The notes below the pieces were generated by a model that worked only from the letters and a program-made list of their open reading frames with translations, ran no database searches and was not told where the DNA came from. Made by a program: the position numbers and the translations under genes. Positions 20,292 to 58,704 of a stretch of 64,000 nt of DNA are shown piece after piece (position 1 is the stretch's first letter; each line of letters begins with the position of its first letter). This DNA is from a virus. Lineage: Duplodnaviria > Caudoviricetes. The stretch lies in IMG/VR virus record IMGVR_UViG_3300010163_000002, positions 184,906-248,905 of that record; one strand, written 5' to 3'.

Positions 20292-20831
20292 ATGGCAAAC
20301 AGTGTAACAGAACTTGTACAGGAGATTAATGAAGCTAGAAAGAAGAAGACTTCTGCATCTAGCAAAGATGAAGTAAGAGTTATGAGAGCTATGGTTAATG
20401 ATCCGGAATTCGTTATTGATGTATACGGCGGCGATGGGGTAATTGGTCAGTTCTCCCCATGTGAGACAGCTCACAATATGGCGGCAAATATTATTAAAGG
20501 AGCGGCAAAAGTATCATCTAAGGAAGCAGAAGAGCTTGCAGCGAATTATGAATTCACAAAACAGGATGCGGAAGCACTTGTTTCTATCTCTAAAGAATTC
20601 ATTAATACGTATATCGAGACCGGTAGAAAGCTTCCGCTAGGCGGCAGAGAAACGTCAAACATTGCCATTGCCAAAAAGGTTAAAGAAGAAAGAAGTAATA
20701 GCTTTCCTAAGAAGGTTGGCGTTAACAGCGATGGATCTGATAAATACGAGTCTGTTAAAGATGGGGTTATTCCGTCTCATGGCAGTCTTAAGGTTTATTC
20801 ATCTTGCCCGTCTTGGGTAAAGAACAATTAA
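20292..20831 (+). CDS. Putative HU/IHF-like DNA-binding protein
   Basis: 'INTYIETGRKLPLGG...KKVKEER...IPSHGSLKV' resembles the HU helix/beta-arm layout; AAGGAGG RBS; late motif at 20231-20243. Confidence 0.5.
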   Translation: MANSVTELVQEINEARKKKTSASSKDEVRVMRAMVNDPEFVIDVYGGDGVIGQFSPCETAHNMAANIIKGAAKVSSKEAEELAANYEFTKQDAEALVSISKEFINTYIETGRKLPLGGRETSNIAIAKKVKEERSNSFPKKVGVNSDGSDKYESVKDGVIPSHGSLKVYSSCPSWVKNN

Positions 20832-20833
20832 GT

Positions 20834-20920
20834 AAAGATCTTGTTCATAAATTTCTCCTTTCATTAAAAAATGGGTGTGGGTGGTGATTAAGTTCACCAC
20901 CCATGCTTATTTGTTTTTTT
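20834..20920 (+). ncRNA. Candidate late antisense small RNA (anti-SD plus anti-AUG seed, terminator)
   Basis: AACA-ATTAAG-TAA at 20823-20835; GTTCATAAATTTCTCCTTTC tract; 17-bp hairpin at 20871-20910 followed by a U-tract. Confidence 0.5.
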
Positions 20921-42783: not shown

Positions 42784-43234
42784 AATAAAGAGATTGTAGG
42801 TAATATATACGTTATAAAATCCAAAATTCCCCCACGTAAAAGTGATTGATATATTTCAATTAAATTATAATAAGGGAATAGGTGATTTATATGGCGAACA
42901 AATATCTTAAAGGCGGAGCTATTAATCCAGCATGGGCTGATGAGCAGGAGGCTGACAGAATTACTGAAAACATACTTAATATGATCGAAAGCGGATGTGT
43001 AAGTAAATTATTATTTGAAGCAATAGGAGGTGTTGCAATAGAAATAGAAAATCCGGGAAGTAATTATGAACCAGAAAATAAAAGTAATGGTAATTCGTTA
43101 GAAGAAATCTTTCAGTTCATTAAAGATCATAGTGATAACGAAGAAGATCTGAAATTAGCAAGAGAAATTGCCGGTTTAGATTAAATATAATTCTTATAGT
43201 ATTGTAAAACGTACGAATTCGCAATCTCTTTATT
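42784..43234. repeat. Long-range inverted repeat enclosing the 42891..43184 gene
   Basis: AATAAAGAGATTG (42784-42796) / CAATCTCTTTATT (43222-43234), plus TACGTT (42808) / AACGTA (43208). Confidence 0.75.
42891..43184 (+). CDS. Small acidic hypothetical protein in a stand-alone early-type unit
   Basis: AGGTGA RBS; early motif at 42763-42774; flanked by a 13-bp inverted repeat. Confidence 0.6.
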   Translation: MANKYLKGGAINPAWADEQEADRITENILNMIESGCVSKLLFEAIGGVAIEIENPGSNYEPENKSNGNSLEEIFQFIKDHSDNEEDLKLAREIAGLD

Positions 43235-47129: not shown

Positions 47130-48179
47130 ATGATTTTCGCAGAAGCAACATCTGGACAGATGTCCTATGAAAACATCAATGAGAGCCCGTACGATCTTGG
47201 CATCGGCGGAGCTCTTATGCATGTATATGAGAACGAGTGCAACTACAACGCAATTATGAAGGCTGCAGCTATCAGCGAGATGCGCTATTACAACGAGACT
47301 GGCGGAGACCTGTTTGTTCAGGAAGCAGGAGCGCTCAGCGGATTCTTTGAGAAGGTTAAAGCATTCTTCAAGAAAGTTATCGAGAAGATTAAGTCCATCT
47401 TCAAGAAATTCGTTGCAAAGATCAACCAGTTTACCATGAAGGATAAGGACTTCGTTAAGAAGTATCGTGATCAGATCGCAAGAAAGAACCTTACTGATTT
47501 TGAATTTGATGGGTACAAGTTCGCTGGTAATCTTGCAGGTAAACTTAATCTGACTGTACCGGCAAATACTCTTATCGCTGGGGTAGACCATACAAAGGAT
47601 TCTGATGCTATCAACGATGTATGCGAAACTAATCGTGGTAAAATTATTGATGGCAAAGTAGCGCTTACAGAATCTGAATTTAGAGATGAGTTGCGTGAAG
47701 TTCTTTATGGTGATAAAGAAAGCTTCAAACCATCTATCAGGGACGAGTTTGATTTCATTGATAACACTCAGAAGGCGATCAAAGAAAATGAAAAAACCCA
47801 GAAAGATACGATTAAAATTATTGAAGATATCATCAAGGATATTGACAAAAATATTAAAACTCTGTCTAGCAAAAAGGCAGGTGACACAAAATTATCTACT
47901 CCAAATAAATATGGCGTAAGTTCGGGAGAACTTAGCTCCAAATATACTGATAATGAATCTGCAGATAATGCTACTAAAGCAGCAACAAACAGAGTAACTG
48001 TTTACAAATCCTTCTCTAATGACCTTACCGTAGCATTCGGCGCTGTATCTAAGGCTATTGTTGATCGTAACCGTCAGGCTAAGGCTATCTGTGTTAAGGC
48101 GCTGTCCTACAAGCATGAGAGTGCGACTGTATATGGCGGCGGAGCAGATGATATCTTTGCTAACGTTCAGATTGTTTAA
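47130..48179 (+). CDS. Internal head protein, paralogue 2
   Basis: 'VQEA-GALSGFFEKVKAFFKKVIEKIKSIFKKF...KDKDFVKKY'; leader AATTAAAATAAGGAGGAAATAA is identical to that of paralogue 1. Confidence 0.65.
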   Translation: MIFAEATSGQMSYENINESPYDLGIGGALMHVYENECNYNAIMKAAAISEMRYYNETGGDLFVQEAGALSGFFEKVKAFFKKVIEKIKSIFKKFVAKINQFTMKDKDFVKKYRDQIARKNLTDFEFDGYKFAGNLAGKLNLTVPANTLIAGVDHTKDSDAINDVCETNRGKIIDGKVALTESEFRDELREVLYGDKESFKPSIRDEFDFIDNTQKAIKENEKTQKDTIKIIEDIIKDIDKNIKTLSSKKAGDTKLSTPNKYGVSSGELSSKYTDNESADNATKAATNRVTVYKSFSNDLTVAFGAVSKAIVDRNRQAKAICVKALSYKHESATVYGGGADDIFANVQIV

Positions 48180-55751: not shown

Positions 55752-56684
55752 TTACCTAAGTGGCATCATTGATTTAATAATGTCGTCATTTCCATCAGAA
55801 ATATAACCCAATGTTTCATAGGCTATAAGAAAGATTTCATTATTACTATCTTTAACAACAACGTGCTGCAAAGAAACAATTTTTGAAATATCTATATCCT
55901 TATCATATTTGATAATTTTTACATTATCAATATATCTCATAAGAACATGCTGAAGTTTGTTCATTTGTTTGTTATTAAGAATTATATTCCCATCAGTGTC
56001 ATATGATTCTTTACCAAGAATAATTGGGAACTGTATATCACAGATATTAAAGATGCTCATAAGATTATACATGAACTCATTATCCGCTAATAGTTCTTCA
56101 ACTGTATTTGAAACTCCTTTTACCATGCTAGGTAGATATGATTTGATCATAGCAAGAGTCGCGTTAATGTCTTTCCTAAGCTTGTTAGGAATAAGTTTTA
56201 AAATATCATCAACAGAATCTGTTAAATATATTGCAATGGATTCCTGCTTCACAATCTTGGTAAATGACATCATTTCTTTTATATCATCTTTACTTGCTGT
56301 TGTTACAGTTAGGCAGTCGCCAATGTAAATTGAACTCATATCACCAAGCATATTCTTTCTTGTGCTATAGTAGTTCTGTCTGAGAATAAGCGCCGGCTCT
56401 TTAATCCCATTAGCTATATCTGACATTCTATTTACACAGAAGTATACATCCTCAACATCAATGTTGCTTGTAGGATCAGGTTCTTTGGTAATCATAATAT
56501 TAAGAAACGCATCAGGATCAATTCTTACATATTTATCAAGAAGATTCGATCCACTAATTATTTTATTAACATCAGAACCATCTTCCTTTAATACGTAGTG
56601 CTCGCCGTCTCTAATTCTGAAAATTCTTCTGATTTTAGATTCTCCATCTTCGTACGTTTGAAATTTTGTTCCTATGAATTGCAT
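55752..56684 (-). CDS. Hypothetical protein
   Basis: AAGGAGG RBS, 310-aa ORF. Confidence 0.65.
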   Translation of the reverse strand: MQFIGTKFQTYEDGESKIRRIFRIRDGEHYVLKEDGSDVNKIISGSNLLDKYVRIDPDAFLNIMITKEPDPTSNIDVEDVYFCVNRMSDIANGIKEPALILRQNYYSTRKNMLGDMSSIYIGDCLTVTTASKDDIKEMMSFTKIVKQESIAIYLTDSVDDILKLIPNKLRKDINATLAMIKSYLPSMVKGVSNTVEELLADNEFMYNLMSIFNICDIQFPIILGKESYDTDGNIILNNKQMNKLQHVLMRYIDNVKIIKYDKDIDISKIVSLQHVVVKDSNNEIFLIAYETLGYISDGNDDIIKSMMPLR

Positions 56685-56762
56685 ACCTTATCCTCCTTAA
56701 GTATTATAAATTACTATTTAGTTTAAGTATTTATTTAAATTAAAATAACATAACATATTTAT

Positions 56763-56845
56763 AAGAATCACCTAAGTTTATATGTTACTATGTCATACGA
56801 TGCCCGCATGGGGAAACCCATGCGGGTGTTGTATCGTTTCATGTT
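56763..56845 (+). ncRNA. Candidate late small RNA with GNRA-capped hairpin, antisense to flanking genes
   Basis: AACA-TATTTA-TAA at 56752-56764; 18-bp stem ATACGATGCCCGCATGGG-GAAA-CCCATGCGGGTGTTGTAT with three G-U pairs valid only on the + strand. Confidence 0.5.
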
Positions 56846-58638
56846 TATAATATATAATTAACAATATCTTTTAGCTTGAGGACTTCATCTTTTTTTATTG
56901 TAATGGTATGAGGATAGAATACTGTACTTTCATAATATTCAGCAAAATTAAAATCTGGTTCTTGCGAGATAATATAAGTAAGATACTTATTAAAGTCATT
57001 AAGTACTCTTGCTCTTGTCCTCATATTTTTCTCTTTATTCTTAAGATATCTATTATGATATAATTTACGCTCTAATACATGATTAATATAATAGAGCCTT
57101 GATAATTCGTATTTCATTCCTTCAAGATTATTAGATTTATGATATTGGAGTAATAGTTTATGAGAAGATGAATATTCTGCATCAAAATCTATAAACTTGT
57201 TAGTCAGTATAATATCACCATCTTTATTTAATCCTATCGGTAATTTAGCTTCCAGAGCTACTGGATAAATAAAATCGGCAATAAGATTAGACACTTCTGA
57301 TACTGTTTCGGTATATGGTCTAGCCTTAGATGCCATTCTAGCCATATATTTGGATACTTTCTTAGCATTAAAATCTTTAGTAATTCCATCAAATGCTTTA
57401 TATACTTTACTATTCTTTAATGAGAATCTATAAAAGTCATTTGGAGTGACTTTAGAAGAATCTTTATTTGATATATCTATATTTGCTAACTTAAGCATAG
57501 AATCTACAAATTGAGAGCAAATCATAGACGTGCTCATATTTATATTAATATGCTTAAATGGTATAGTTAATATATTCACAACGCTATAACTTGTATCCCT
57601 AATATTTTCGATTAAGAATTTAATGGCTTCGGATATTTTTTTATGAATTTCTGGCTTTACAAAAAATGTAAATACTGCCAGCCTATGATCCTTAGGGTAT
57701 TTTTCAACAGATTCAATTGAAAACCCTCCGGTAAAATTCATATTATTATCCATATTAAATGAATATAATTTGTTAAAGTCATTATCTATACATAATGCAG
57801 AATGAGAGAACGGCCCATTTGTTACTTTGCTAATTGTGCTTGATAATGGGCCATCACCATATACCAATACAACACTTATTGGCTTAAGTTTGGATTTGTT
57901 AGATTCTTCAATGATATCTATTTTAGTATCATCAAATGATTCTACTATAGAACTTATATCAAGAATAACATTATTATTTCCAGTAAGCATTTCCTGATAT
58001 ATAGATTCTAATCTATTTATTGCTTTTATCTGATTTTCCGCATTATATTCAACTTCCGGATTCCAACCTATATTTAGCATTTGTTGCTTAATATAATTAA
58101 TTTCATCTGGATCTTCTGTCAGTTTTAATCTATTTTGTAATTCTGTTATTTTTTTATACCAACCTCTTGGTTCAAACTTAATATCTGATGATTCGGAATA
58201 CAATTCATCATATTCTCCAGACCATTTATATTTATCAATCTCAGAATTAATTTTAGCAATTTCATCCGGATCGTTAGTACTTCTTAATTGATCAGATAAG
58301 TCATCCAATCTGCTTCTAATACTTCCAATGTCATAATTTGAAGCCTCTGTATAATACTCTCCAAATTCTAATACTTCTTCTGGAGTAAAGTATGGAGCCA
58401 CCGAATATGGCCACTTGAATACATTTTCTCTTTTAATTGATTCTTCTATGTATTTGACATTTCTTTTAATATAATATTTCACGCTTGCAGATTGAGCTAT
58501 ATTAGATTCTTCAAGCACAAAATTTTCAATATACGATAAGAACTGCAAAGAATCCATAATACTCTCTGGTCTATGGAGTTCTGTTTTGGGATGTGTTTGC
58601 ATAAATGATTCTATAAGAATTTTTTGATTATCATTCAT
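56845..58638 (-). CDS. Virion protein with permuted papain-like amidase (YiiX/YebB-type NlpC/P60) domain
   Basis: His before Cys: 'GPFSHSALCID...YSVVNI...MICSQFV...VTPNDF'; many X-X-E-[A/S] motifs in the N-terminal region. Confidence 0.75.
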   Translation of the reverse strand: MNDNQKILIESFMQTHPKTELHRPESIMDSLQFLSYIENFVLEESNIAQSASVKYYIKRNVKYIEESIKRENVFKWPYSVAPYFTPEEVLEFGEYYTEASNYDIGSIRSRLDDLSDQLRSTNDPDEIAKINSEIDKYKWSGEYDELYSESSDIKFEPRGWYKKITELQNRLKLTEDPDEINYIKQQMLNIGWNPEVEYNAENQIKAINRLESIYQEMLTGNNNVILDISSIVESFDDTKIDIIEESNKSKLKPISVVLVYGDGPLSSTISKVTNGPFSHSALCIDNDFNKLYSFNMDNNMNFTGGFSIESVEKYPKDHRLAVFTFFVKPEIHKKISEAIKFLIENIRDTSYSVVNILTIPFKHININMSTSMICSQFVDSMLKLANIDISNKDSSKVTPNDFYRFSLKNSKVYKAFDGITKDFNAKKVSKYMARMASKARPYTETVSEVSNLIADFIYPVALEAKLPIGLNKDGDIILTNKFIDFDAEYSSSHKLLLQYHKSNNLEGMKYELSRLYYINHVLERKLYHNRYLKNKEKNMRTRARVLNDFNKYLTYIISQEPDFNFAEYYESTVFYPHTITIKKDEVLKLKDIVNYIL

Positions 58639-58671
58639 TCTTATTTTAATCCTCCTTTACAAAAAATAAAA

Positions 58672-58697
58672 TAGAGGGTTGTTTGATCAACCCTCTA
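58672..58697 (-). terminator. Intrinsic terminator
   Basis: TAGAGGGTTG-tttgat-CAACCCTCTA with A-tract on the left. Confidence 0.7.
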
Positions 58698-58704
58698 CTA
58701 AATT

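Follow-up and report, generated by a model that had tools for sequence, protein, structure and literature searches.

The genome of a virus that is, judged by its sequence, an uncultured AR9-like jumbo phage raises a question at one short spacer between two genes: why should a late promoter point into a hairpin with no gene behind it, while an early promoter points back at it from the other side? The DNA analysed here (the window) makes up the final 64 kb of one virus record of 248,905 bp (IMG/VR IMGVR_UViG_3300010163_000002; 32.7% GC), and the spacer at 56685–56844 separates the minus-strand genes 56845..58638 and 55752..56684. Positions are those of the window unless given as genome positions. 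We conclude that a late antisense RNA is probably made from this spacer, and we give an even chance to the full statement that the spacer is a conserved gene for a small non-coding RNA, with a late promoter facing an early promoter, which silences the early leader in cis.

In AR9/PBS1-type jumbo phages the entire programme of transcription depends on two phage-encoded polymerases. A multisubunit RNA polymerase β-like protein is encoded in the record and was the only protein that placed this phage among named relatives in a search of a phage collection; the nearest of these are AR9, PBS1, Staphylococcus jumbo phages and phiR1-37, at around 30% identity. Late promoters of AR9, mapped by differential RNA sequencing (dRNA-seq), follow the rule AACA-N6-T-A/G(+1), with AACA at −11 to −8 of the non-template strand (PMC5312081). 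The original prediction had placed a late motif on the plus strand between the two minus-strand genes, and the sequence at 56752–56764 indeed reads AACA-TATTTA-TAA, that is, AACA, 6 nt, T at −1 and A at +1. By the AR9 rule, the late RNA would start at 56763 and begin AAGAAUCACCUA. No gene lies behind this motif on the plus strand.

The same motif behaves as a promoter across the whole genome. AACA-N6-TAA is found at 27 intergenic sites that precede a same-strand gene by 150 nt or less, a density of 1.7 per kb compared with 0.03–0.14 per kb elsewhere; these sites are correctly oriented, the distance from motif to start codon is mostly 20–70 nt, and controls with N5 or N7 spacing are flat. Beyond these sites the genome holds three intergenic orphans, 24 copies in sense and 8 in antisense within coding sequence. 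The antisense copies are around fourfold rarer than the N5/N7 controls (25–33 sites), which suggests selection against stray antisense late promoters. Scored with a position weight matrix (PWM), the motif at 56752–56764 reaches 11.8 bits, which lies between the 5.7 of chance matches inside coding sequence and the median of 13.2 for bona fide sites. Two other promoter types were considered and rejected: sigma-70-type host promoters are absent from the spacer, and the region has no excess of them; a gene-strand −10 box (TATAAT or TACAAT) lacks a conserved −35 box, and conservation there is bipartite, falling on AACA and TAA.

An early motif had been predicted to face the late one from the minus strand, and it is present. 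Early promoters of AR9, also defined by dRNA-seq, have the form AAATATATATTAT-N6-G(+1) (PMC5312081). Positions 56854–56840 read TATATTAT-AAACAT-G on the minus strand, fitting the AR9 early rule TATATTAT-N6-G(+1), and the longer match, AATTATATATTAT-AAACAT-G, has a single mismatch in the upstream AT block. In this genome TATATTAT-N6-G extends to TATATTATAAtnnTGAAt. With a PWM score of 18.9 bits (leave-one-out median 15.7), the site is among the 14 best positions of the genome. The early (56840, minus) and late (56763, plus) transcripts predicted from the two motifs overlap by 78 nt, so that the late RNA would pair without mismatch with the leader over this length, counted from the leader's 5′ end.

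Between the two promoters lies a hairpin, the putative intrinsic terminator of the late RNA. An independent terminator scan flagged it on the plus strand only, where the stable GC-rich stem-loop has 18 bp, including 9 GC pairs. Folding of both strands agreed with the earlier claim of an 18-bp, GAAA-capped stem whose three G-U pairs form on the plus strand only, giving −31.6 kcal/mol for the stem at 56795–56834 on the plus strand versus −19.7 kcal/mol on the minus strand. The 91-nt plus-strand fold has −34.6 kcal/mol (z −5.6); on the minus strand a 10-bp core with a few outer pairs (−22.9 kcal/mol, z −2.8) is followed by CAUCGUAUGACA, with no U-tract. Among the 77 hairpins between co-directional genes, this is the one most biased towards the antisense strand (+11.9 kcal/mol), and the top three in this ranking all sit at the three orphan late motifs. 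GNRA tetraloops lie on the transcribed strand in 7 of the 24 tetraloop hairpins of this phage; four hairpins carry GNRA on the non-gene strand, and two of these four belong to orphan late-promoter units. The features of the locus are collected in Table 1.

Table 1 Features of the spacer and its flanking genes, in window coordinates; RNAs and starts are predictions
Feature	Position	Strand	Remark
Late (non-virion RNA polymerase type) promoter motif, AACA-TATTTA-TAA	56752..56764	+	Predicted start A at 56763
Predicted late non-coding RNA, ~78–88 nt	56763..56846	+	3′ end placed a few bases past the hairpin
Anti-Shine–Dalgarno tract, AAUCACCUA	56766..56774	+	Unpaired in the predicted fold; minus strand is UAGGUGAUU, the Shine–Dalgarno-like site of the early leader
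Terminator hairpin, 18 bp including 3 G-U pairs, GAAA tetraloop at 56813–56816	56795..56834	+	Minus strand forms only the 10-bp core at 56803–56826
U-rich tail, CGUUUCAUGUUUAUAA	56835..56850	+	Complementary to the A-rich 5′ end of the early transcript; weak here
Early (virion RNA polymerase type) promoter, AATTA-TATATTAT-AAACAT-G	56840..56859	−	Start G at 56840; overlaps stop codon 56847–56845
Possible 12-codon mini-ORF, MLCYFNLNKYLN	56718..56756	−	11 nt after the Shine–Dalgarno-like site
Proximal promoter-like motif of gene 55752..56684, AACT-AAATAG-TAA	56711..56723	−	Predicted start at 56712; outside the antisense overlap
Downstream gene, 310 amino acids, no known family	55752..56684	−	Long leader is the predicted cis target
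Upstream gene, 597 amino acids	56845..58638	−	Last codons (INYIL-stop) contain the early promoter core

Further evidence for the late RNA comes from relatives. We recovered the homologous spacer from 15 related contigs, making 16 regions with the window, and aligned 13 of these sequences (54% mean column identity, diverged flanks). On the gene strand, the order in most relatives is an early promoter over the stop codon of a ~590-amino-acid gene, a hairpin, a strong Shine–Dalgarno (SD)-like sequence such as AGAAAGGAG, and the complement of the late promoter; the GC-rich hairpin is often built on CCCATGGG. The conserved gene-strand block CATTACnATAATGTTT is, read on the other strand, AAACATTATnGTAATG, a late promoter aimed at the hairpin. 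The antisense late motif is found in 14 of the 16 regions, with the neighbouring protein only 36–59% identical, and shuffling predicts 0.02–0.06 per region. In the alignment the columns AACAT..T..TAA are invariant, and their position and orientation are constant. Early promoters of the form TATA[T/C]TAT-N6-G are retained in most relatives, including the G and the A-rich stretch that lie beyond the stop codon, and in one distant relative (L017) the early motif is wholly non-coding. Covariation across the related phages, proposed earlier as a check, showed that the pairing of the hairpin is kept: 7 of 11 pairs have compensatory changes and none of 500 shuffles reached the observed covariation score. 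The antisense-strand loop is GNRA in 7 of the 13 versions (GAAA, GUAA, GUGA, GAAA, GCAA, GUAA and GAAA), and relatives have better U-tracts on the antisense strand, for example UUUUGUUUUAU and UUUUUAUUUUAU.

These patterns bear on one alternative, in which the hairpin is an ordinary bidirectional intercistronic terminator of the 597-amino-acid gene and the late motif a chance match that yields no meaningful RNA. In relatives the two strands of the hairpin differ little in stability, and in several the gene strand has its own U-run; the number of orphan motifs is what the spacing controls predict; and giant phages commonly have bidirectional terminators, which make up 15 of the 132 terminators of 201phi2-1 (PMC11512511). 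A chance match would not, however, be expected to stay invariant in position and orientation across 13 aligned relatives with diverged flanks, when chance predicts only the few hundredths of a motif per region given above; moreover, the gene strand here has a much weaker stem and lacks a U-tract, and the equivalent motif in AR9, described below, is an active start site. We regard this alternative as very unlikely. The hairpin may nevertheless also end the mRNA of the upstream gene. The earlier claim that it is a poor terminator for the flanking genes fits the short minus-strand stem and missing U-tract of this genome, but less well the relatives, whose near-symmetric stem looks bidirectional.

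The ~80-nt late unit proposed between the convergent promoters is thus present as an ORF-less promoter–hairpin unit (ORF, open reading frame) that distant relatives conserve. None of the 13 versions compared shares a conserved ORF, and a small protein on either strand of the spacer was rejected or is at best doubtful, its frames and peptides not being conserved. The RNA belongs to no Rfam family, the best match being IsrM at 26.7 bits against a gathering threshold of 376. In relatives the predicted antisense RNA often has a 5′ stem-loop, then an unpaired anti-SD tract (CACCUUUCUU or CUCCUUUCUU), then the terminator and a U-run. SD-like/anti-SD tracts are found in 14 of the 16 regions and are absent only from L028 and L034, which also lack the antisense promoter while keeping the early promoter and the hairpin; this joint absence of promoter and tract ties the tract to the antisense unit.

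The anti-SD tract underlies the main rival to cis silencing, namely that the same small RNA acts in trans: its tract resembles the 3′ end of 16S rRNA and would pair late in infection with other ribosome-binding sites (RBSs) of phage or host, the overlap with the early leader being incidental. In favour of this, the tract is the sole conserved sequence from promoter to terminator and is left unpaired in the predicted RNAs, and the AR9 unit described below would itself start with AAUGUCCUCCUGU. Units of the same build without a cis target also exist in this genome. At window 20823–20920, on the plus strand between plus-strand genes, a late motif over the stop codon of an HU-like gene would give an ORF-less RNA of ~85 nt with UUUCUCCUUUC that ends in a 19-bp hairpin and U7; relatives keep the terminator, and some the anti-SD tract, with no clear promoter. 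At genome 47336–47475 (outside the window; L030:2337-2476), between two minus-strand genes, a plus-strand late motif at 47370 precedes a 5′ stem-loop of 12 bp, after which come CCUCC, left unpaired, and a terminator capped by GAAA that has UUUUAUUU only on the plus strand; this unit has no early promoter opposite and is absent from four related genomes. Since some of these look-alike units have nothing to regulate in cis, a role in trans stays alive.

Target predictions spoke less clearly for such a role. This phage uses AAGGAGG as its RBS type. Pairing with the RBS of the ATG at 42891 had been proposed, and the complementarity is real, TAGGTGATT being that RBS (it occurs three times in the genome), but the pairing was no better than in shuffled controls; every anti-SD tract can pair with every SD. 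When duplex energies were computed for all 256 initiation regions, 24 sites lay at or below −10 kcal/mol, compared with a mean of 10 and a maximum of 34 for shuffled seeds, and so were not clearly better than the latter. By inspection, SD sequences are similar in early and late genes, with no selectivity apparent; a general anti-SD RNA would strike the late mRNAs of the phage itself too; and the other units of this genome are poorly conserved in four related genomes. Action in trans is, in our judgement, unlikely.

Two further orphans lie outside the window. At genome 74289 (plus) a transcript from an orphan late-type motif would start exactly at a plus-only hairpin, and at genome 94563 (minus) pyrimidine-rich tracts and a terminator come after an AACT-type motif, a unit built like those at 47370 and 20823; both units are ORF-less and structured. 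Overall, 6 of 104 orphan late motifs are followed by a terminator and an anti-SD tract, compared with 13 of 629 control motifs, a modest excess.

A second rival assigns the conservation to the gene strand. Here the early transcript would carry a protective 5′ module, a stem-loop very close to its 5′ end and an upstream SD or mini-ORF that holds a ribosome, with the antisense promoter secondary or acting through collision only. Gram-positive mRNAs have 5′ stabilizers of this kind, such as the STAB-SD of cryIIIA, a type of element that prolongs mRNA half-life by binding the 30S subunit, and the ermC leader, to which the stem-loop and SD-like site of the early leader are likened. The SD-like UAGGUGAU lies 66 nt from the predicted early start and ~85 nt before the ATG, and in relatives the near-perfect SD AGAAAGGAG lies ~100 nt before the real start; as in STAB-SD elements, a strong SD-like sequence sits near the mRNA 5′ end, a long way from the start codon. 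Of 14 regions, 11 have a start codon 4–11 nt downstream of the SD-like site, opening short frames of 6–18 codons. Early-promoter matches at genome 32147 and 89636 (both minus, outside the window) likewise lead straight into a GC-rich hairpin within 1–5 nt of their predicted starts, so that a 5′-end stem-loop may be a recurring feature of some early transcripts in this phage, and the early promoter and hairpin persist in distant relatives without the antisense motif (L017, L028 and L034).

Several observations nevertheless run counter to a gene-strand function. The two regions that lack the antisense promoter also lack the SD-like site, despite retaining early promoter and hairpin; mini-ORF peptides are not conserved, and three regions have no such frame; it is the opposite strand that carries the GNRA loop and the better U-tracts; window 20823 has the same module, although no transcript of the gene strand is expected at that site; and the invariant AACA-N6-TAA is left unexplained. 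We consider this explanation distinctly improbable. The SD-like site could be a ribosome-holding stabilizer of the early leader or the mere complement of the seed of the small RNA.

A third rival treats the early promoter and hairpin as a premature-termination unit that produces an early RNA of ~45–50 nt, or as an attenuator that gates the 310-amino-acid gene. The early start lies 5–15 nt before the hairpin in all relatives, several of which have a U-run after it, and units of a start closely followed by termination have been reported as sources of small RNAs in the giant phage 201phi2-1 (PMC11512511). But the gene-strand hairpin here has no U-tract, and the antisense promoter and anti-SD tract are unaccounted for, making this reading very unlikely as an alternative; as an addition, it could coexist with antisense silencing.

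Silencing of the early leader in cis by the antisense RNA, the reading we prefer, is plausible, and we infer it from geometry. Late in infection, the non-virion RNA polymerase would initiate at 56763 from AACA-N6-TAA, copy the unpaired anti-SD tract and halt at the GAAA-capped hairpin, yielding an RNA of ~80 nt. This RNA would match, as an exact complement, nucleotides 1–78 of the virion-polymerase transcript from 56840, and likewise any read-through from the 597-amino-acid gene, with the complementary stretch covering the leader's 5′ hairpin and upstream SD-like site. Small RNA and leader would form a long duplex, masking the SD-like site and opening the leader to double-strand-specific cleavage, and there may be further interference from polymerase that runs into the early promoter. 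For its late expression, the 310-amino-acid gene would then depend on the proximal AACT-N6-TAA promoter, whose short leader lies outside the cover of the small RNA. This proximal motif was found in 10 of 14 regions, and in most related regions AACT-N6-TAA lies ~35 nt before the start codon. Across the whole genome the motif, in which T replaces the fourth base of the AR9 late motif, is around fivefold enriched just upstream of genes; it is kept before homologous genes in relatives and, in two relatives, before the homologues of another gene. AACT-N6-TAA may be a second, or weaker, class of late promoter.

A number of points weigh against antisense silencing as we propose it. The U-tract of this genome is interrupted (CGUUUCAUGUUU, with 4 U in the first 8 bases), passing a loose terminator scan. 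Relatives have a nearly symmetric, A/T-flanked stem that could be a plain bidirectional terminator, the three G-U pairs being a peculiarity of this genome. The score of the late motif is a little under the bona fide median, and the three orphan late motifs of the genome compare with one to four expected from the spacing controls, so that a single orphan is not significant alone. The late promoter rule is borrowed from AR9, whose non-virion polymerase requires deoxyuridine in the template, and the late start here is a predicted one. The early promoter core doubles as coding sequence (INYIL-stop), and the protein may explain part of its conservation. Pure antisense pairing needs no conservation of an SD-like sequence, which points to an additional or different function. 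Finally, neither the AR9 unit nor the unit at genome 47370 faces an early promoter, and silencing of an early leader is thus not the general role of such units; nor can the timing switch put forward in the original prediction be their general function.

A broader, speculative reading is that the non-virion polymerase of AR9-like jumbo phages makes a whole family of late small RNAs, in which an exposed mimic of the 16S rRNA 3′ end masks the SD sites of chosen early or host messages. Its members would be the locus in the window, three or four units of similar build elsewhere in this genome and the as-g090 RNA of AR9, which is very abundant. We think such a family rather unlikely; if it exists, it would be an RNA counterpart of the early translation shut-off of the T4 RegB type. 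To our knowledge, it is not known how AR9/PBS1-type phages switch off their early messages. A conserved small RNA that the late enzyme produces and whose sequence complements the 5′ end of an early-enzyme transcript would be a simple post-transcriptional device for this hand-over. The AR9 counterpart has a published start and a culturable, genetically tractable host, Bacillus subtilis, so the idea is directly testable there. The combination of late promoter, anti-SD tract and GNRA-capped terminator also provides a pattern by which small RNAs of phages can be sought in jumbo-phage genomes from metagenomes.

The surrounding genes give the setting of the locus. Neither the spacer nor the two flanking proteins matched anything in the phage collection in DNA and protein searches, and the 597-amino-acid protein had no match in an IMG/VR scan. 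The 310-amino-acid protein has ~70 metagenomic homologues, many on contigs of 165–265 kb, and the gene order around it is kept at most related loci. Upstream, at 58670–58699, between a gene for a 1,054-amino-acid phosphatase-domain protein and the 597-amino-acid gene, lies a canonical terminator on the minus strand (12-bp stem and UUAUUUUUUG). No promoter motif was found from this terminator to the next start codon, and the 597-amino-acid gene therefore seems to rely on read-through. At the ends of the record (1–100 and 248806–248905), the first and last ~85 bases repeat each other, an assembly overlap that fits a circular or terminally redundant assembly.

How does the locus compare with known systems? 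Like bidirectional intrinsic terminators, it has a GC-rich palindromic stem between an A-rich and a T-rich run, and in most relatives equal stability on both strands. Unlike them, the G-U extension of the stem and the sole usable U-run are here on the non-gene strand, and a conserved promoter points into the stem from 30–70 nt away. Phage antisense RNAs offer a closer parallel. OOP of lambda and sar of P22 are RNAs of ~70–77 nt with their own promoter and intrinsic terminator that pair in cis with a regulatory transcript; sar targets a ribosome-binding site, and the OOP duplex is cut by RNase III. Both are transcribed by host RNA polymerase, in temperate phages. The present locus shares with them an ORF-less unit with its own promoter and terminator opposite a regulatory transcript. 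It differs in that the convergent promoters belong to two multisubunit polymerases of the phage, so that timing would follow the polymerase switch, and in that the predicted target is a 5′ leader with an extra SD-like site rather than the RBS or 3′ end of a gene.

Among giant phages, small RNAs of 201phi2-1 and phiKZ detected by Oxford Nanopore (ONT)-cappable-seq come from short units with a termination site close behind the start site, some of them intergenic, and the position of one is conserved across genera (PMC11512511). The present unit shares this short start-then-termination layout, but those RNAs are mostly derived from 5′ untranslated regions in the sense direction, and the word 'antisense' is absent from the main text of that study (PMC11512511). 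Late promoters of phiKZ also differ, having TATG in place of the AR9-like AACA-N6-TA (PMC5312081).

The closest counterpart is in AR9 itself, where seven late promoters in total drive antisense transcription (PMC5312081). An antisense late start at 75478(−) lies beside g090 and has a step height of 3757, the largest in the part of Table S3 examined; the paper lists its RNA simply as 'antisense', without length, 3′ end, function or further discussion (Lavysh et al. 2017, PMC5312081). The spacer between g090 and g091 carries, after the g090 stop codon, a 16-bp hairpin, the SD-like ACAGGAGGAC and the complement of AACATATTAATA, and the RNA, beginning as given above, would traverse the hairpin and reach a U-rich stretch. 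A search beyond close kin found this unit only in near-identical phages. Both units have AACA-N6-T-A(+1), an anti-SD tract within the first 15 nt, a long hairpin and a U-rich tail, and both are ORF-less and lie between two co-directional genes on the opposite strand. Unlike the window unit, the AR9 unit has an experimentally mapped start, faces no early promoter and adjoins the gene for the β subunit of the non-virion RNA polymerase; the two share no sequence homology and have different neighbouring genes. The kind of element is thus already known, from OOP, sar and the antisense transcripts listed for AR9. What is new here is the convergence of two phage polymerases on one hairpin, the recurring anti-SD design and the deep conservation in a family of uncultured jumbo phages.

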